This document shows positions 42,791-50,811 of a DNA stretch of 64,000 nucleotides, piece after piece. The DNA is from a virus. Numbering within the stretch: the stretch's first letter is position 1; each line of letters starts with the position of its first letter. Under the pieces are notes generated by a model, which saw only the letters and a program-made list of their open reading frames with translations, was not told the DNA's origin and made no database searches. The DNA is taken from positions 21,155-85,154 of the IMG/VR virus record IMGVR_UViG_3300009593_000014; one strand, written 5' to 3'. Position numbers and translations under genes: made by a program.

Positions 42791-42989
42791 CCAGCAGGCT
42801 GTGTTTCGTGGCCCGCTCACTCTCTCCCTTTAACGTCAGAGAAACTATATACAAGGACATTATAGCTTTAATACATAATCCCCAACCGCTCGCTGTTGTT
42901 CGTTGGCTCGCTAAACCGCAAGATTGTGCATGCATGCGCAAAGGCTTTTAATAAACATTGGTGAATAGATAGAACTTAAAAATAATGAC

Positions 42990-43019
42990 TTGACTTGATC
43001 TAATCAGTTATGCCATAAT
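42990..43019 (+). promoter_or_regulatory. Sigma70-type promoter with extended -10
   Basis: TTGACT-N18-CATAAT with TG extension. Confidence 0.65.
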
Positions 43020-43040
43020 TTCTTTATGGCGATATCACCA

Positions 43041-43104
43041 CTACCAAACAGCAACGCCCCGCTCATCGTTGCAGCTCCGGTAGCAATTAGTAGAGCAGGA
43101 AGGA
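43041..43104 (+). ncRNA. Candidate 5' leader pseudoknot RNA (type-A copy 1; others at 45854-45916 and 48721-48790)
   Basis: Covarying P1, P2 and loop-to-3' pairing across three copies. Confidence 0.6.
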
Positions 43105-43115
43105 AACGTGATCTT

Positions 43116-43442
43116 ATGGCAACGGATTGGGGTCAAGCAATTGACCTATCCGAGATTGCAAAGTCTCGTCGTGGCGCAACAGCGACCTACGAGCAGGGAC
43201 TACTTGACGCACTTACTGAGGCATTCAGTAACGGTCAAGCACTTGCAGTGTCACCATTGGCAGTTCTTCAAGAGTCTTTTAAGACTGACGAAGAATACGC
43301 CAATGCGAAACAAGCCAACGCTGCAGAGATCAGGAAGCACTTCAACCGCTTGGTTGAATTGGGACTGATCGCTGACGGTTCAAAGGTGTCCATAAATTGG
43401 CACCCAGAGACCGGCGTTCCACAAGTTTCGCTTAAAGGGTGA
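43116..43442 (+). CDS. WHPE-family paralogue A1
   Basis: WGQAIDLSEIAKSRRGAT..INWHPETGVPQVSL; SD AGGAAGG; in-frame upstream ATG at 43026. Confidence 0.85.
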   Translation: MATDWGQAIDLSEIAKSRRGATATYEQGLLDALTEAFSNGQALAVSPLAVLQESFKTDEEYANAKQANAAEIRKHFNRLVELGLIADGSKVSINWHPETGVPQVSLKG

Positions 43443-43454
43443 TTCTCGGTCCAT

Positions 43455-43510
43455 CTGACTCTTAAACGAGGAACCGGAGTGACTAGCAAGCACTTGGCAA
43501 CAGAACAAAC
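43455..43510 (+). ncRNA. Candidate 3' RNA motif of type-A cassettes (others ~46263-46318 and 49156-49212)
   Basis: A 35-nt block is identical in copies 1 and 2; the stem shows compensatory changes in copy 3. Confidence 0.55.
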
Positions 43511-43516
43511 TACTAA

Positions 43517-43550
43517 AGAAGACCGGCTCGGGGGAGCCGGTCTTCTTCTT
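43517..43550 (+). terminator. Intrinsic terminator
   Basis: AGAAGACCGGCTC-GGG-GAGCCGGTCTTCT. Confidence 0.8.
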
Positions 43551-43787
43551 TGTGTGGGTGCATATCAGGAGCTGCAGCTGCAACGAGTTCTGCTGTTGTT
43601 CGTTTGCTCGCTAAACCGCCAGATTGTGCATGCATGCATGGCAATATTTAATACGAATAGTTATGCAGCTAGAACTTAAATAAGGATTATCTACTGTCGT
43701 AAAATTCAAATGTTGTTGTTTGTGTTAATAGTTGGATACGATCAGTTTTGTCATATTAAAAACATTTAACTTTGGAGGTTAAAAATT

Positions 43788-44297
43788 ATGAACGTTTACG
43801 GATCAGGAGGAGGGCTAGTAAATCTAAACGGTTTACATGATGGCGCAATGCCTCTTATGTGGAAATTAGCCTGTATACATATCGGGCTAGATATTGCACC
43901 CCTATTTAGAGGGTTCGCTATTGCTAAGACCCTTAATGATGTTTATTACGTCTACACCATGAATAGCGATAATGGTGTTAATTGGTGTATTGACTCATTT
44001 GTCGTCTATGACGAATATGGCGAGGGAATGCTGAACTGCCTTATGCACGTTCAGGCTGATGTAGCAGACCTACAAGAAGTAATAGATGGTGGCGGCAAAC
44101 GAGCGATATGGCTCGCTGACTACAATCCAGATAGCGGTGTTGACATTGGTTATGTAGATGAGAGGGAAGTAGAGGAAGCAGATATTTCTGTAGAAGATTA
44201 TGCCCGCTTCTATATCGGTCTTACCCAAGCGATCATTCAGCATGGCAATAGAGAAGATGGCGCTATCAGTTTTGATTGGACTAAGACAATTCCATAA
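43788..44297 (+). CDS. Cassette cargo: unrelated 169-aa hypothetical protein
   Basis: SD GGAGG; terminator at 44309-44348. Confidence 0.78.
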   Translation: MNVYGSGGGLVNLNGLHDGAMPLMWKLACIHIGLDIAPLFRGFAIAKTLNDVYYVYTMNSDNGVNWCIDSFVVYDEYGEGMLNCLMHVQADVADLQEVIDGGGKRAIWLADYNPDSGVDIGYVDEREVEEADISVEDYARFYIGLTQAIIQHGNREDGAISFDWTKTIP

Positions 44298-44599
44298 GGC
44301 ACCTAACAAAGACCCTCATGTTGCAGCTGCAGCGTGAGGGTCTTTTTTGCTTTATGGGGTCTTGTCTTGAGTGTTCGAGGAGCCACTATTCCGACCAGCA
44401 GGTGGAAAATAGGGCTGTTGTTCGTTTGCTCGCTAAACCGCAAAATTGTGCATGCGTGCATGGCAATATTTAATGCGAATAGTTATTCAGCTGGAACTTA
44501 AATAAGGATTACCAGGTTCGAGAAAGTTGGATGTTGTTGTTTATATTAAAAATATGTATCCTCGGATATGTCATATTCAACTAAGAGAAAGGTTATGAC

Positions 44600-44929
44600 A
44601 TGGCAACATTAGACAACTGGGGAGAAGCAATAGATCTCTCCGAAATTAAGAAAGCGAAACGGGGTGCGACTGTTCATTTAGAACAGGGGCTTCTTGACTT
44701 CCTTTCTAAAACTTTAAGTGCTGGTCAAGCAGTAGCACTTACTGGTTTCACTATTGACCCTAAAAAATTCCCTGATGAGAAAGACGCAGGCAATGAACGC
44801 CAGCGCATTGGGGCAGTTATTCGTCGGCATGTTAATCATCTTCGTGATGAAGGATTAATCCCTGATGAGAAAGTGTCTATTAATTGGCACCCAGAAGCGG
44901 ACTATCCGCAGATTAGTTTCAAGTCTTAA
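44600..44929 (+). CDS. WHPE-family paralogue B1
   Basis: RIGAVIRRHV..INWHPEADYPQISF; terminator at 44945-44976. Confidence 0.88.
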   Translation: MATLDNWGEAIDLSEIKKAKRGATVHLEQGLLDFLSKTLSAGQAVALTGFTIDPKKFPDEKDAGNERQRIGAVIRRHVNHLRDEGLIPDEKVSINWHPEADYPQISFKS

Positions 44930-45207
44930 CTAATCCACTCGCTTAAGGCCCTCATGCTCCGGCATGAGGGCCTTTTGCGTTTATGGGGTAAGTCCCAGGA
45001 CTAGAACGCTGTTGTTCGTTGGCTCGCTGACCGCCCAATTGTGCATACATGCGCGATGGTTTTTAATACGAATAGTTATGTAGTTAGTACTGAATTAGGA
45101 ACTATCGATAACCGAGAAAGTTAAATCGTTGTGTTTAGTTTAAAAGTTTGGTTACAATCTCAAGAGTAAACATAACCGCCACCAGATGTGGCAGAAAGAG
45201 AAAAACA

Positions 45208-45537
45208 ATGGCAACAATGGATAACTGGGGTGAAGCAATAGACATCTCAGAAATTAAGAAAGCGAAAAGGGGTGCAACCGTTCAGCTTGAGCAGGGGCTC
45301 CTCGATTTTTTGCAAACCACGCTTGGCGCTGGTCAAGCAGTGGCGCTCACTGGATTTCAGATAGACCCTAAAAAGTTTTCTGACGAAAAAGATGCTGGCA
45401 ATGAACGCCAACGTATCGGTGCAGTGATCCGTAGGCACGTTAATTATCTTCGTGATGAGCAACTAATAGCCAACGAAAAAGTGTCAATCAATTGGCACCC
45501 TGAAGAAGACTATCCTCAGATTAGTTTTAAATCTTAA
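45208..45537 (+). CDS. WHPE-family paralogue B2
   Basis: MATMDNWGEAID; promoter TTGTGT-N18-TACAAT; terminator at 45554-45585. Confidence 0.88.
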   Translation: MATMDNWGEAIDISEIKKAKRGATVQLEQGLLDFLQTTLGAGQAVALTGFQIDPKKFSDEKDAGNERQRIGAVIRRHVNYLRDEQLIANEKVSINWHPEEDYPQISFKS

Positions 45538-45928
45538 ATAGTCTCTTTCACTTAAAGCCCTCATGCTCCGGCATGAGGGCTTTTTGCTTTTTCCAACCAG
45601 CAGGTGGAAAAGTTGGGCTGGTAAAAGTTGGGGTTCTCATGGATTAAAGTTTGGAACTTTGCTAGTCCCAGGACTAGAAGCCTGTCGTTCGTTGGCTCGC
45701 TGACCGCAAAATTTAGTATGAACTTATGGCAATTTTTAATAGGAATAGTTCTGTAGCTAGTCCTGAACTAGGAACTATCGAGAACTTAAGAAAATAAAAT
45801 ATGTTTGAAAATATAAATTATGACGATAGGAATAAGGCATGGAGATATCACCACTCAATAGAACTAGCGCCACGCCCATCGCTGACGCTATTGGGCAACC
45901 ACTAGGGCAGGAAGGATACTTGATTGCA

Positions 45929-46258
45929 TTGGCAACTTCATGGGGGTCATCTATTGACCTTAGTGAGATCGTTAAAGCCTCTCGTGGCGCTACGGCGACA
46001 TATGAGGAAGGCTTGCTTGATGCTCTTGCTGAAACACTCGGTAAGGGTCAAGCATTAGCGTGCACACCTATGGCGGTACTTGCTTCTGACTACGCAGAAG
46101 AAGACGATTACCGCAATGCTAAGCAAACTAATGCGGCAGAATTGCGTAAGCACTTTAACCGCTTGGTGGAACTCAAAAAAGTTCCTGCTGGTTCTAAGAT
46201 TTCTATAAATTGGAATCCCGAAACCGGCGTGCCTCAAGTTTCGCTTAACAACAAATAG
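45929..46258 (+). CDS. WHPE-family paralogue A2 (WNPE variant)
   Basis: TTG start aligned to A1; in-frame ATG at 45839; terminator at 46322-46350. Confidence 0.82.
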   Translation: MATSWGSSIDLSEIVKASRGATATYEEGLLDALAETLGKGQALACTPMAVLASDYAEEDDYRNAKQTNAAELRKHFNRLVELKKVPAGSKISINWNPETGVPQVSLNNK

Positions 46259-46664
46259 GCAACTCACAATATGAGCAAGACTCGGAGTGACTAGCAAGCA
46301 CTTGGCAACAGAACAAAACTCAAGCCCCTCGCAGACGCGAGGGGCTTCTTACTTTCTATGGGTTAATAGCCTCGCCTCGAGAACTGTATCGCTGTTCCTG
46401 GATCTAGGGCTGTCGTTCGTTGGCTCGCTTCCTTATAACTTTTAACGGTAGGAAAAATTGTTGTTCTCCCTGGTATGAATTAAGTGGATATTTCAAAACG
46501 ATAGTTAATCGTCCTGGTCTAAGACAAAACACTAACTGATTAAGCAGCAGGAGCTGAATTAGGAACTATTGACTACCGAAAAAATTAAATGTTGTTGTTT
46601 ATCTTAAAAGCCTGTATCTTCATATATTCAATAAACAACTATTAAACCTTAAGGAGGTTTTGTT

Positions 46665-46985
46665 ATTGACAATCAATGGGGCGAGGCCATAGACCCCTCG
46701 GAAATAAAGAAAGCAAAGAGAGGTGCGACTGTTCAACTAGAGCAGGGGCTACTTGACTTTTTGCAGGAAATACTCAACAACGGACAAGCGGCACAAGTCA
46801 CGGCTTACAAGATTGATCATAAAAAGTTCAAGACTGAAGATGCTGTAGCCAATGAGAAACAAAGAATCGGTGCAGTAATTCGCCGTCACGTTTCTCATCT
46901 CCGTGATGAGAAATTAATCGCCAATGCTAAAGTTTCGACTAATTGGCATCCTGAAGAAGATTATCCGCAGGTTTCATTCTCGTAG
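46665..46985 (+). CDS. WHPE-family paralogue B3 with ATT start
   Basis: The frame extends upstream of ORF 46761 as IDNQWGEAIDPSEIKKAKRG; AAGGAGG lies 7 nt before the ATT; in-frame stop at 46650. Confidence 0.78.
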   Translation: MDNQWGEAIDPSEIKKAKRGATVQLEQGLLDFLQEILNNGQAAQVTAYKIDHKKFKTEDAVANEKQRIGAVIRRHVSHLRDEKLIANAKVSTNWHPEEDYPQVSFS

Positions 46986-47068
46986 ATAATCTTCTCCCTT
47001 AAAGCCCCCTCATAGGTTCCTGTCAGCACTAGATCCTTTCTGAGGGGGCTTTTTGGCGTTTATGGGGG

Positions 47069-47120
47069 AAGTTGGGGATCTCGTCTGTTTTTGGAAGTTG
47101 GGGATCTCGTCTGTTTTTGG
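47069..47120 (+). repeat. Perfect 26-bp tandem duplication
   Basis: aagttggggatctcgtctgtttttgg x2, just before header copy 12. Confidence 0.9.
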
Positions 47121-47325
47121 ATCTTGGGCTGTCGTTCGTTGGCTCGCTGACCACAAAATTGTGCATGCATGCATGACAATGTTTAATATGAATATTTCTG
47201 TAGCTAGTACTGAATTATGAACTATCGACTACCGAGAAACTTAATTAGTTGCATTTAGTTTAAAAGTTTGATTACAATGTCAAGAGTAAACACAACCGCC
47301 ACTATGTGGCAGAAGGATAAAGACA

Positions 47326-47655
47326 ATGGCAACAATGGATAACTGGGGAGAGGCAATAGACATCTCCGAAGTTAAAAAGGCAAAAAGGGGTGCGACTGTT
47401 CAACTAGAGCAGGGGCTACTTGACTTTTTGCAAACCACGCTTGGCAATGGTCAAGCAGTAGCACTTACTGGATTTCAGATAGACCCTAAGAAGTTTTCTG
47501 ATGAAAAAGATGCAGGCAACGAACGTCAGCGCATCGGTGCAGTAATTCGCAGGCACGTCAATCATCTTCGTGATGAGCAACTGATTGCTAACGAGAAGGT
47601 ATCCATCAACTGGCACCCAGAAGAGGATTACCCACAGATCAGCTTTAAATCTTAA
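47326..47655 (+). CDS. WHPE-family paralogue B4
   Basis: Protein near-identical to B2; promoter TTGCAT-N18-TACAAT; terminator at 47671-47702. Confidence 0.88.
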   Translation: MATMDNWGEAIDISEVKKAKRGATVQLEQGLLDFLQTTLGNGQAVALTGFQIDPKKFSDEKDAGNERQRIGAVIRRHVNHLRDEQLIANEKVSINWHPEEDYPQISFKS

Positions 47656-47972
47656 CTGGTCCCCTCGCTTAAGACCCTCACGCTACGGCGTGGGGGTTTT
47701 TTGCGTTTATGGGGTAAGTTTTGGAAAGCTGGTGGAATACCAGTCCCTCGAACACTATAAGCCTTGTCCCAGGACTAGAACGCTGTCGTTCGTTGGCTCG
47801 CTTCCCGCGAAAATTGTGTGCACATATGCACACATTGAGTACATATTTATAGTTAAAAATATATCTATTCCTGGTACTAGAAGTTTGGTAGTTGCGTTTG
47901 GCTTTGAACTATGTTTATAATTTAAAGAGTAAACACAACCGCCACCTTTGTGGCAGAAAGTAGAGTAAAAAC

Positions 47973-48302
47973 ATGAGTACCAATTGGGGGAGCGTTATAG
48001 ACGTTTCCGAAGTTCAGAAGGCAAGCAGGGGGGCGACTGTTCAACTAGATCAAAGCCTCCTTGACTTCCTTTGTGAAGCCTTAAGCGCCGGGCAAGCAGC
48101 CGCGCTTACTGCCTACCGAGTAGATCCTAAAATATTCTCTAGCGAGAAGGATATGGCAAACGAGAAACAACGGATAGGCGCGGTAATCCGTAGGCATGTC
48201 AACAACCTTCGTCATGATGGTTTGATAGCCGAAGGCAAAGTATCAATTCATTGGCACCCAGAAGGCGGATACCCGCAAGTACAACTGCTTAGTTATTCCT
48301 AA
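47973..48302 (+). CDS. WHPE-family paralogue B5
   Basis: IHWHPEGGYPQV; promoter TTGCGT-N18-TATAAT; terminator at 48320-48350. Confidence 0.88.
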   Translation: MSTNWGSVIDVSEVQKASRGATVQLDQSLLDFLCEALSAGQAAALTAYRVDPKIFSSEKDMANEKQRIGAVIRRHVNNLRHDGLIAEGKVSIHWHPEGGYPQVQLLSYS

Positions 48303-48801
48303 GCAGATCCCTTCACTCGAAGCCCTCACGCTACGGCGTGGGGGCTTCTTGGCGTTTATGGGTAAGTTTTCGGAAGCTGGTGGAAGACAAACGCTGTCGT
48401 TCGTGGCTCGCTTCCTTATAACTTTTTGCGGTAGGAAAATTTGTTATAGCTATTGCCTGACTTTAATGCATGCCCCGGAAAGTGTTTTGAAAGAATAATG
48501 CTCCCCCTGGTGGTTAAAACTTTTTAGATGGTGTATTAGTCCACCGAAGTTCAATTTTGTTTCAATGGTGGCTTCTCAGAACCGACTTTTTTGCATTAAA
48601 TGTCTTAATTGAAAGTATTTCAAATAAATAGACCTTCCTCGAATATTAAAGAATTTGAAAAAAAGTGTGTTAATTCTTGATTATGAAGGTAACTTATTTC
48701 ATATGGATATAACTTATTCACTTAGCAATCCGAGAAGCCCTATGATGACCGGCGCTCAAATAGCTATGCAACCAAATAGGTCTGTGGAGCATAATTCTTT
48801 T

Positions 48802-49143
48802 ATGGGAAATCCTATATCTGATGAGTGGGGCGAAATAATTGACCTCGGTGCCATTGCGAAATCTCGCAGGGGTGCCGTTGCTAGTTATGAGCAAGGCTTG
48901 CTAGATGCTTTGACCAAGGCTTTTAAAGCCGGTCAAGCTTTGAGTGTTACTCCGTTCACGGTTCTTGAGTCTGACTATAAGTCAGAAGAAGAATTTAAGA
49001 ACGCTAAGCAATCCTATGCAGCCGAAATCCGCAAACACTTCCGCCACCTAGTGGTTACTGAAGTAGTTGCGGAAGGTTCCAAGGTTGCCATTAATTGGCA
49101 CCCTGAAACCGGCGTGCCTCAAGTTTCGCTTAGAAGCTCTTAG
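48802..49143 (+). CDS. WHPE-family paralogue A3
   Basis: EWGEIIDLGAIAKSRRG..INWHPETGVPQVSL; in-frame upstream ATG at 48703; terminator at 49234-49262. Confidence 0.82.
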   Translation: MGNPISDEWGEIIDLGAIAKSRRGAVASYEQGLLDALTKAFKAGQALSVTPFTVLESDYKSEEEFKNAKQSYAAEIRKHFRHLVVTEVVAEGSKVAINWHPETGVPQVSLRSS

Positions 49144-49474
49144 ACTCATCAAAAACTGAACCCCTTGAGGGTGAACGGAGTCGCCACTAGCGACTTGGCA
49201 CCAGAACCAAACTAGTAAAGCGTAATATCCACCAAGCCCCTCGCAGATGCGAGGGGCTTCTTACTTTATAAATGTCTCAGCTGCAATTTTTATGTGGCAC
49301 CTCTCAAGGCTCAAGGGCTGTCGTTCGTGGCTCGCCCAATGACGGTGTTGAATACTAATGAAAATTAATATAACTATAGATTATATTGAGTAGACATATC
49401 CCTAGCGTAGCTTCGCTATCGTGCCGGAGTCACGATAGCAAAAATCTTTAATATATATTTATTATATAGAGTGC

Positions 49475-49790
49475 ATATTTTTCCCCACACACACCTTTTA
49501 TATGTTTTATACATAATTGGCCGGGTATTCCGAAGGAACCTGAAAGGCAAACTTGTGCCCGCAAAATATTATTAATCCTTAAGCATTATATTGTGTATAT
49601 ATTTTTCCCCACAAATAGCTTTTAGTTTGGCGGGTATTCCGAAGGAACCCGAAGGGCAAACTTGTACCCGCAAAATATTATTAATACTTAACCATTATAT
49701 TGTATGTATATTTTTCCCCACGAATTACTATTAATCTTTGCGGGTATTCGACGAAGGAGAAGGCGCAGCCCTTGTACCCGAAAAATTATT
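49475..49790. repeat. Three ~110-bp tandem units with branched GNA-triloop hairpins
   Basis: TTTTCCCCAC...CGGGTA-TTCCGAAGGAA-CCYGAARGG-...-TRCCCG; structured cores at 49522, 49631 and 49741. Confidence 0.85.
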
Positions 49791-50811
49791 GTTAATTATT
49801 TCCGTTAATTTAATGCGCTATTTCCTAACACTTTTTGTTATTAATAATTATTATTAAAAAGTATTATCTTTAATGGTTTGGCATTATAGGGTGGGTATAT
49901 ATTTCCCCACAAATATAAACTTTTTTTATATGTTCCAAGATGAACGGAATTAGTTATAGATAAGTGTGGGCGATATATATTACAAGTTACACCTATGTAA
50001 TTTTAAAGATAAGTATTGGAAGCTATTGTTAGAGATATAAGTTGGCGATTAGGTTGGCTGATAATATATAAAAGATATTTATATAGATATCCCTACACGA
50101 TAAATCTACTCTTTATTCCTTATCTGTTTTTATCAAAGGTATCTGTAATTAGTATAAATGTAGGTCTGAAATGTTAGAGTTATTTTCCCCCATTATTTTT
50201 ACGGTCCAAAGTTAAAGCAATTGAAACGGAATAAGTTTATTGCAATCTCTAAACGATATCTATCAGAGGAAGAAATGAAAGATAAAAAATATTAATAATA
50301 AATACTATTAACTAGAATTATTTTTATAACGGAGACATTATACGGCCCACATTTAATTCCCCGGCCAACCCTAATATAAATAAATAAAATATATATATAA
50401 TCGGACCTAAGTGTCTATTCTCTATAGAGAGAGTAACAATAAATACCCTCCCAGAACCTACATAAAAGCTTTAATAAATACAAAAAGAAATAAATAAAGT
50501 TTATTTAATTACAATACATCTGTGAAAACCTATTAAAATAGGTAATATTATAAGTGTTTGTTTTATATGACCAGTCAGATGCTATCGTTATTTTAATCTG
50601 AGAGGCTATTTAAGTGCTCTGTGGGGGGTTTTGAGATAGTTTTTATGTTTAATATCATCTAGGGAGAAACAATCTTCTCTATGGATTACTCTATGGGTTA
50701 TAACTATTCTTATCCCCCGATTTCGTTGTCGCACTTAATTTTAATAATTAGCAATTTGAATGCATGCCCGCGTTAGCTTTAATTTCTAATTCAGAATAAT
50801 AATTTTGGGCA

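Follow-up and report, generated by a model that had tools for sequence, protein, structure and literature searches.

A phage 3′-untranslated RNA element that probably shares the terminal pseudoknot module of two-piece tmRNA

The window analysed here is a 64,000-nucleotide (nt) stretch of viral DNA, bases 21155-85154 of the 85,154-base IMG/VR virus record IMGVR_UViG_3300009593_000014, which is classed as linear and estimated to be 82% complete. It comes from a tailed phage, among whose gene products are a portal protein, a head maturation protease, a capsid-like protein and a ribonucleotide reductase. An array of single-gene cassettes lies at about 40.8-49.3 kb of the window, and a 5′ header is common to all of its cassettes irrespective of the gene carried. 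Eight of the cassettes hold paralogues of one small protein, a family that we label WHPE after its conserved INWHPE; three of the genes are longer (type A) and five are of type B. The type-A genes were identified from a list of open reading frames (ORFs), a paralogue alignment and matches to a family hidden Markov model (HMM), and all lie on the plus strand: paralogue 1 at 43026..43442 (138 amino acids, aa), paralogue 2 at 45839..46258 (139 aa) and paralogue 3 at 48703..49143 (146 aa from the ATG at 48703, in an ORF open from 48655). Behind each of them, between the stop codon and a terminator-like hairpin, stands a copy of the RNA element that is the subject of this report.

An earlier note on this DNA had described a 35-nt block that is identical at 43475 and 46283, and an exact scan confirmed it. 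The 35-mer occurs exactly twice in the window, at 43475-43509 and 46283-46317 on the plus strand, even when up to three mismatches are allowed (0/100 shuffles). The tail TTGGCA[A/C]CAGAAC has exactly three mismatch-free occurrences in the whole 85,154-base genome, at window positions 43494, 46302 and 49195; the last belongs to a third copy (at 49176), in which we also saw the stem kept with changes, as that note had said. The small variable upstream hairpins (CTC/GAG, CTCA/TGAG and ACCC/GGGT) and the CTGA that it listed are likewise present. The copies follow type-A stop codons (TGA 43440-42, TAG 46256-58 and TAG 49141-43, respectively) with stop-to-tail distances of 52, 44 and 52 nt, and a strong terminator-like hairpin lies 10-27 nt past each. 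The block was not found behind any of the five type-B paralogues or behind the unrelated 169-aa cassette gene at 43788-44297. The distinction drawn previously between type-A and type-B genes therefore holds in the window, and it extends to other genomes, as described below.

Copy 1 (43455..43512, plus strand) consists of CUGA at 43455-58, an inner CUC/GAG hairpin, CCGG at 43474-77, a stem (S1) in which GAGUG 43477-81 pairs with CACUU 43491-95, and the tail UGGCAACAGAAC at 43495-43506. Its terminator-like hairpin (43516..43547, plus strand) has 14 pairs, 8 of them GC, and a T-rich tail. Copy 2 (46263..46318, plus strand) has a CUCA/UGAG upstream hairpin at 46263-75, CGG at 46283-85, the S1 hairpin at 46285-46303 and the tail at 46303-46314, with the terminator-like hairpin at 46322..46347 on the same strand. 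In both copies the stem reads GAGUG-A-CU-AGCA-AG-CACUU, S1 being lengthened by CU/AG beyond a bulged A, and the loop of S1 finds a partner of at most 3 base pairs (bp) for a second stem (S2), with none of 4 bp or more. Copy 3 (49156..49216, plus strand) begins with CUGA at 49156-59, an ACCC/GGGU hairpin at 49160-72, GAA, and CGG at 49176-78. Its stem is of the form GAGUCG..CGACUU, a 6-bp S1 between 49178-83 and 49191-96, and is followed by a 2-nt loop 1 (CC), a 5-bp S2 between ACUAG 49186-90 and CUAGU 49212-16, the tail UGGCACCAGAAC at 49196-49207 and a 15-nt crossing loop, GGCACCAGAACCAAA; the terminator-like hairpin is at 49234..49259, plus strand. As judged from these letters, copy 3 can form a full pseudoknot, and copies 1 and 2 would be a hairpin-only variant.

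Orthologues of these copies are found at the locus L028. The orthologue of copy 3 (L028:2319-2382) retains S2 as GCUAG/CUAGU, with an A-U pair changed to G.U. Copy 2 and its L028 orthologue have the motif in identical form. Copy 1 has its orthologue behind a protein that is 95% identical, where the variable hairpin ahead of S1 (P0) and the terminator are nearly identical to those in the window. The S1 hairpin of this orthologue is wholly different yet paired (CGAG/CUCG plus CC/GG, compared with AGUG/CACU plus CU/AG), and the S1 hairpin of window copy 1 is the version found in copy 2 and in the L028 orthologue of copy 2. Because the flanks are near-identical, S1 differs from L028 and copy 1 equals copy 2, the 35-nt identity is best read as a short recent conversion tract from copy 2 into copy 1. 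Recent conversion with no structural conservation had been named as one way in which the identity might be explained away. Its first half stands, as the tract is real; the structure is nevertheless conserved, and function is not refuted. The swap between copy 1 and its orthologue shows, as far as alignment can, the hairpin being exchanged as a working unit.

We scanned metagenome contigs with the WHPE family alignment, which gave 39 loci; together with the window, these contain 99 ORFs recognized by the family HMM. Duplicates were removed, as was any ORF truncated at the end of its contig, any of fewer than 95 aa and any followed by less than 100 nt, leaving 60 distinct pairs of gene and 3′ untranslated region (3′-UTR). 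We found TGG[C/G]A.CAG.A 42-62 nt past the stop codon (median 51.5) in 48 of the 60 pairs; the distances of the three window copies fall inside this range, on the same strand as the ORF. The element is kept behind homologues at 43-95% protein identity. Absence of the block behind type-A homologues elsewhere, the outcome that would have spoken against a conserved element, was looked for and is not what these pairs show. On the protein tree, the 12 genes without the motif form one clade, which holds all five type-B genes of the window, plus two small losses. Motif presence takes 3 changes on this tree, which has few columns and several long branches, compared with a shuffled mean of 11, and 0/500 shuffles were as low. 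Two of the motif-less WHPE genes, at L061 and L063, are followed by another conserved, structured-looking 3′-UTR instead of the pseudoknot (GTCCGAGCCGGCCAATAGGCCGGTGACTAACTCCTAAGGC...). At L059, six copies of the element stand behind successive small genes.

For structural analysis we aligned 27 distinct 62-nt copies from the metagenomic WHPE loci, without gaps. The family architecture is a variable hairpin P0, CGG, an S1 of 4-8 bp with an invariant closing G.U, and a nearly invariant 12-nt strand, UGGCAACAGAAC. P0 is often CUGA-N7-UCGG, and a longer hairpin takes its place in some copies. In this alignment S1 has 4 bp (5 bp counting the invariant closing G.U), and S2 forms between the 7-nt S1 loop and the six bases after UGGCAACAG.ACAA. 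All S1 cells are paired (100% across the 27 copies) and 3 of its 4 pairs have changed on both sides; 84% of S2 cells are paired and 5 of its 6 pairs have changed on both sides, which makes 8 of 10 pairs for the two stems together. Over all cells, 90.4% are paired, compared with 61.5% in shuffles (0/500 reach 90.4%) and 21-45% when the partner strand is slid. This comparative evidence shows the predicted fold of the element in most members to be an H-type pseudoknot, with the conserved strand UGGCAACAGAAC as its long crossing loop. Because several S1 and S2 pairs alternate with G.U, it is the RNA of the sense strand that folds, rather than DNA or the antisense strand. Pairing and conservation thus support the earlier suggestion of a structured, functional-looking sense-strand RNA between stop codon and terminator, presumably co-transcribed with the gene. 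Outside S1 and S2, the middle G of CGG covaries perfectly with the C of UGGCA (G-C in 19 copies and C-G in 8; alignment columns 20 and 40; loci L030-L059), and by eye the alternation occurs in two separate sub-lineages. We read this as a candidate tertiary or helix-extending pair, for which the window equivalents are G43476/C43498, G46284/C46306 and G49177/C49199.

We then used a covariance model, R1, built from the 27 metagenomic copies only and describing S1 only. With filters off, the three window copies were its top three matches, copy 2 at 22.6 bits (E 4.8e-5) and copy 1 at 15.9 bits (E 0.0083) leading. Besides copies 2 and 1 of the window, R1 matched free-standing copies, both in IMG/VR and in contigs of metagenome-assembled genomes (MAGs), as well as the 3′ ends of phage transfer-messenger RNAs (tmRNAs) at L012, L016 and L008. 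Across 28 distinct matches outside the seed, in an alignment fitted to the model, pairing of S1 is complete (100%) and all 28 have the closing G.U. At least 5 contiguous pairs between the loop and the downstream strand of the same copy are possible in 60% of 80 distinct copies, compared with 19% for mismatched partners. We consider it very likely that the element is a real structured RNA family.

The matches at tmRNA ends point to where the knot has its counterpart. An exact-pattern scan of IMG/VR returned 16 contigs. In L002, L006, L008, L011, L012 and L016, Rfam searches (to which 9 of the 16 loci were submitted) show that the block ends a tmRNA gene of the permuted alpha type, where it lies right past the tag stop codon. 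In L005, L008, L011, L013, L015 and L016 the motif falls within a permuted tmRNA called by ARAGORN; L009, L010 and L014 have the same tag-plus-motif sequence with no tmRNA called, and L001, L003, L004 and L007 contain copies that stand free. On L008 the permuted tmRNA ending in the motif accompanies 19 tRNA genes. The consensus of RF01849, the alpha-type tmRNA family, ends in ...GGUUC.GGAGgcACCuGGCAACAGAAacCucC.ACU, and the phage tmRNA of L002 aligns to it. Knot variants are also carried by the tmRNAs of the cultured marine phages Mosig (host Pelagibacter) and Melnitz (host OM43), as CUGAGU..ACUUGGAAACAGAAAC.. and ..ACUUGUAAACAGAAAC..; those (PMC9004378) are complete tmRNA genes, whereas the window has none.

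We next considered bacterial tmRNAs, sampling 61 genomes from the class of an alphaproteobacterial MAG (G001). RF01849 matched in 60 of the 61, a tally that includes G045. Among the 30 best bacterial loci, 21 read CG-CGGU-UC-GGGGGGC-ACC(G/U)-GGCAACAGAA-GCCCCCC-ACUU at the tmRNA 3′ end, 2 have loose-pattern matches elsewhere and 7 are without the pattern. In a modelling study of Caulobacter tmRNA (PMC1168896), the 213-nt coding chain terminates in 'pk3 and ACCU tail', and from the shared position we infer that pk3 and its tail may correspond to this knot.

Compared with the terminal knot of alpha-type two-piece tmRNA (the last ~40 positions of RF01849), the phage element has the same CG followed by an S1 of 4-5 bp, the same pairing of the S1 loop with the strand past the crossing loop, the same crossing loop GGCAACAGAA, and the same position just past the stop of a translated frame, at or near the RNA 3′ end. 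In all three window copies the crossing loop GGCAACAGAA is preceded by CG and S1 as in the tmRNA knot, copy 3 reading GGCACCAGAA; an S2 like that of the knot can be drawn for copy 3 (5 bp, ACUAG/CUAGU), whereas the pairing in copies 1 and 2 reaches at most 3 bp. Unlike the tmRNA knot, the phage element follows ordinary protein genes, has the extra 5′ hairpin P0 and usually a separate terminator, and its crossing loop is longer (...GAACAA), with window copies 1 and 2 lacking S2. The window differs from alpha-type tmRNA as a whole (RF01849/RF04321) in having neither a tRNA-like domain nor a tag frame, and a tmRNA gene is absent too. ARAGORN made no tmRNA call, whether on the window or across the full 85-kb genome, the Rfam scans showed no tmRNA family, RF01849 gave one 12-bit minus-strand match on the phage's own genome (cut-off 50), and neither an SmpB-like gene nor a tmRNA was seen in the 85-kb record. 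Searching species-representative genomes with the exact pattern gave 10 matches, about the number expected by chance on a rough estimate, with 0 in a called tmRNA. From the genome pattern scan we retained L021, L022, L023 and L027, which look genuine, and dropped L018, L019, L020, L024, L025 and L026 from subsequent counts, by eye, as coding or without S2. Taken together, it is likely that the element shares the tmRNA terminal-knot module.

Free-standing copies occur behind many other genes. A second IMG/VR scan, with P0 plus the tail, yielded 50 contigs and 37 distinct motif sequences, in which loop and downstream strand are complementary as judged by eye; ARAGORN called no tmRNA on the 49 new loci. 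Of 42 contexts, 30 have an upstream ORF of at least 35 aa, and the distance from its end to P0 is 7-66 nt (median 15). The ORFs upstream of free-standing copies fall into many unrelated groups, 0 of which match the WHPE HMM, and copies at L001, L003, L004, L007 and L021-L023 likewise stand behind unrelated small ORFs. As the same element occurs behind unrelated small genes and at the ends of tmRNA genes, it is not specific to the type-A protein, and the dedicated type-A protein-RNA system envisaged earlier is unlikely. Several contigs carry the element behind successive small genes (three copies each on L113 and L004; also L132, L142, L107 and L109), so motif-tagged cassette arrays are not unique to this phage. 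Some free-standing copies (L003, L004, L007, L022 and L001) stand directly ahead of a Shine-Dalgarno sequence and ATG.

In 8 of the 20 copies of a stricter IMG/VR set, ACCA lies directly past S2. ACCA(C) in this position, directly past the second strand, was seen at L099, L103, L106, L108, L114, L120, L138 and others, and in the phage tmRNAs of L002 and its relatives; examples with ACCA or ACC read ..UCCCCCC-ACCACC and CCCUCCC-ACCA, which are not found in the window copies. ACCA next to a stacked S1 and S2 of about 11-12 bp recalls a tRNA acceptor end, and copies in which S2 is followed by ACCA may present acceptor-like ends that are trimmed or tagged by tRNA 3′-end enzymes. The pseudoknotted acceptor arms of plant-virus tRNA-like structures resemble the subset of free-standing copies and tmRNAs with ACCA or ACC past S2; the window copies, without ACCA there, differ from them.

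The Pfam matches of the type-A protein itself were sub-threshold (HTH_62 at 16.5-17.3 bits and EspG at 13 bits, with a cut-off of 27 for each), no PHROGs family matched, and a Foldseek search of its AlphaFold model (mean predicted local distance difference test score, pLDDT, 74.5) against the PDB returned no match at E<=0.001; with no Pfam, PHROG or PDB fold match, there is no support for an RNA-binding role. In the GenBank phage collection, we found no DNA match to the motif region and no tblastn match to the type-A protein. A search of viral contigs with the type-A protein and the paralogue alignment returned no relatives, from an answer set that possibly excluded the window's own record.

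We also compared the element with catalogued RNAs. No Rfam 15 family matches the block at gathering score in the whole window. At E<=10, the interval 42800-49600 gave 14 weak matches (E 0.48-9.6), none to a ribozyme or riboswitch family, such as hammerhead, pistol, twister, hepatitis delta virus (HDV)-like, preQ1 or SAM-II; the only one touching a copy was ClpQY_promoter (minus strand, 46301-46344; 16.9 bits, E 3.8), which overlaps the tail and terminator of copy 2. The element is not manA RNA, of which the tail had reminded the earlier reader: neither search gave a match to that family. Both manA and this element are phage- and marine-associated structured RNAs, and manA presumably lies upstream of genes. 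Pistol, HDV-like and hammerhead ribozymes, a sigma-54 promoter and integron attC were rejected by comparison with their consensus sequences and with Rfam only. The glutamine riboswitch (RF01739) is a separate element: it matches L067 at 1126-1174, downstream of a knot at ~1079-1118, has no match in the window, and is reported beside the Melnitz ssrA (PMC9004378). In the literature consulted on the loop letters and on tmRNA-like phage pseudoknots, we found no description of the element; the papers listed for the loop letters were unrelated and seem to have matched through primers or microRNAs. The supplementary tmRNA alignments of PMC1168896 and PMC11915505 may mark the knot. The tmRNA terminal knot is known, and what would be new is the use of this known tmRNA domain as a free-standing 3′-UTR element in phages.

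As a whole, the data are best explained by a widespread, uncatalogued phage 3′-UTR element in the form of a portable tmRNA-type knot acting in cis at the 3′ end, a reading to which we assign a probability of roughly 0.45. A terminal knot of the tmRNA type would serve phages as a portable module attached to ordinary protein genes, and would be transcribed as the start of the 3′-UTR, beginning a median of 15 nt past the stop of the gene ahead. The grip of a terminating ribosome on mRNA ends about 15 nt past the stop codon. The knot would lie just outside this footprint, and its fold could persist during translation. Acting in cis on the 3′ part of the transcript, it may shield the message from 3′-to-5′ decay, and/or it may bind whichever host factor or ribosome surface recognizes this loop in tmRNA. 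That the loop is invariant in sequence from Alphaproteobacteria to phages speaks for a conserved partner or a fixed tertiary fold, not mere stability, and a message-protecting and/or factor-docking 3′-end module is therefore favoured. We propose this function, that of a 3′-end stabilizer and/or a docking site, tentatively.

Several observations weigh against this explanation. In the 61 bacterial genomes, R1 gave 15 matches at E<=0.1 in 13 genomes, and 0 of them lie at a tmRNA. Nine of the 15 were inspected and look like chance, with no S1 or S2, although the test is a weak one as R1 misses the bacterial tmRNA variant too. Because R1 misses this variant and matches phage tmRNAs only, the bacterial link rests on the loop, the CG and the topology as judged by eye, together with the Rfam consensus. 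Within the window, R1 scores copy 3 at only 7.6 bits (E 5), which is not significant alone, and we place copy 3 in the family by its architecture and its L028 orthologue, not by its score. No S2 is detectable (<=3 pairs) in 16 of the 80 distinct copies, including window copies 1 and 2, so that the knot as such cannot be indispensable. What lies downstream varies: a terminator stands past 38 of 43 metagenomic copies, compared with 3 of 20 in the stricter second IMG/VR set. If the element were a plain exonuclease barrier, 12 invariant loop nucleotides would be superfluous, and a strong terminator is already present at most copies. No role for the tmRNA terminal knot was found in the literature consulted, which was available in part. 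A look for RNA sequencing runs containing the stretch returned none, and the transcription, 3′ end and processing of the element are deduced from sequence.

Among the alternatives, a decoy or hijack of trans-translation survives best, and it is unlikely. Here a mimic of the tmRNA knot would bind protein S1, SmpB, RNase R or a ribosome surface, and would either protect messages or titrate the factor; the idea overlaps the explanation of a cis-acting 3′-end knot and differs from it only in whether the host system is affected. Element and tmRNA agree in the conserved loop, in topology and in their position right past a translated frame. Two-piece tmRNAs of this type are frequent in marine phages (PMC9004378), and RNase R degrades two-piece tmRNA in Caulobacter (PMC12320835, a review). 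However, the literature consulted, which was available in part, yielded no binding partner of the knot, and the 85-kb record shows neither of the two trans-translation genes sought in it, tmRNA and an SmpB-like gene. An extension of this idea, which we hold to be about as doubtful, is that the element is a portable piece of tmRNA that makes phage messages read by the cell as tmRNA-like, with the loop docking RNase R, protein S1, SmpB or the 30S entry site. If so, phage mRNAs with the module would be immune to rescue-linked decay or would retain terminating ribosomes, and the otherwise unexplained terminal pseudoknot of two-piece tmRNA would gain its first specific function.

It is improbable that the element is a ligand-sensing, riboswitch-like RNA or a self-cleaving one, in which a compact knot with ~20 invariant bases forms a pocket or active site. 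Invariance of the junction and crossing loop, together with an extra covariation that looks tertiary, is typical of such cores, and the copies directly before a Shine-Dalgarno sequence and ATG would suit a switch. The Rfam searches, however, gave no such family at E<=10; in most copies S2 overlaps neither a terminator nor a ribosome-binding site, by eye; and the hairpin-only variants keep the loop but lose the helix that would form the pocket. Cleavage upstream of the knot is at odds with its being part of the mature Caulobacter tmRNA chain (PMC1168896).

Equally improbable is a small RNA derived from the 3′-UTR, with knot and terminator released together and the invariant strand serving as a seed against a conserved host RNA. 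A structured 5′ part, a conserved single strand and a terminator with a U-run would fit, most clearly in the hairpin-only copies 1 and 2, and the frequency of terminators among the metagenomic copies (38/43) agrees. In the knot form, however, the conserved strand is the crossing loop and is not free, many copies have no terminator, and tmRNA conserves this strand as well, although a seed there would have little purpose. The analysis identified no target, and a 7-nt complementarity to 16S rRNA would be at chance level.

A DNA-level site (for tmRNA-gene attachment or cassette recombination) or a functionless remnant of duplication or conversion was already disfavoured and is very improbable: tmRNA genes are frequent integration targets of mobile elements, which carry the 3′ ends of these genes (PMC11915505 and PMC9004378), the element sits in an array of swappable cassettes and conversion accounts for the 35 nt shared by copies 1 and 2, but no tyrosine or serine recombinase (PF00589, PF00239) was found in the 85-kb record, 82% complete, the three copies differ in S1 and S2 sequence, covariation retains pairing through G.U, which works on one RNA strand only, and the element is conserved behind homologues as distant as 43% protein identity (range 43-95%) and behind unrelated genes.

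The element represents a widespread phage RNA family: its distinct copies number at least 80, the contigs that carry them exceed 100, its pseudoknot covariation is strong, and no separate Rfam 15 family matched it. It is tied to a conserved, functionally unexplained domain of two-piece tmRNA, and offers a handle both on the purpose of the terminal knot in alphaproteobacterial tmRNA and on how marine phages tune the fate of many small-gene transcripts. At ~60 nt, modular and swappable between genes, it lends itself to easy reporter testing.

Some further features of the array and its surroundings were noted. The third type-B paralogue (window 46652-46985) has no ATG, GTG or TTG where its relatives start; its frame opens with ATT at 46665, 7 nt past AAGGAGG, which may be an ATT start or a sign of a decaying copy. 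Between the terminator of this gene and the next cassette header, a unit of ~27 nt (GGAAGTTGGGGATCTCGTCTGTTTTTG x2) is duplicated in tandem at 47066-47125. A short conserved word, GCGTTTATGGGG (with variants including GCGTTGTAGGGG and GCGTTATGGGG), follows many cassette terminators in the window and in its metagenomic relatives; its window sites are 44975-44990, 47045-47060, 47702-47716 and 48344-48358. Beyond the array, at window ~49500-50000, G+C content falls from about 41-43% to about 28% and stays low through 50-64 kb to the window end, which reflects either a mosaic phage genome or a chimeric assembly.

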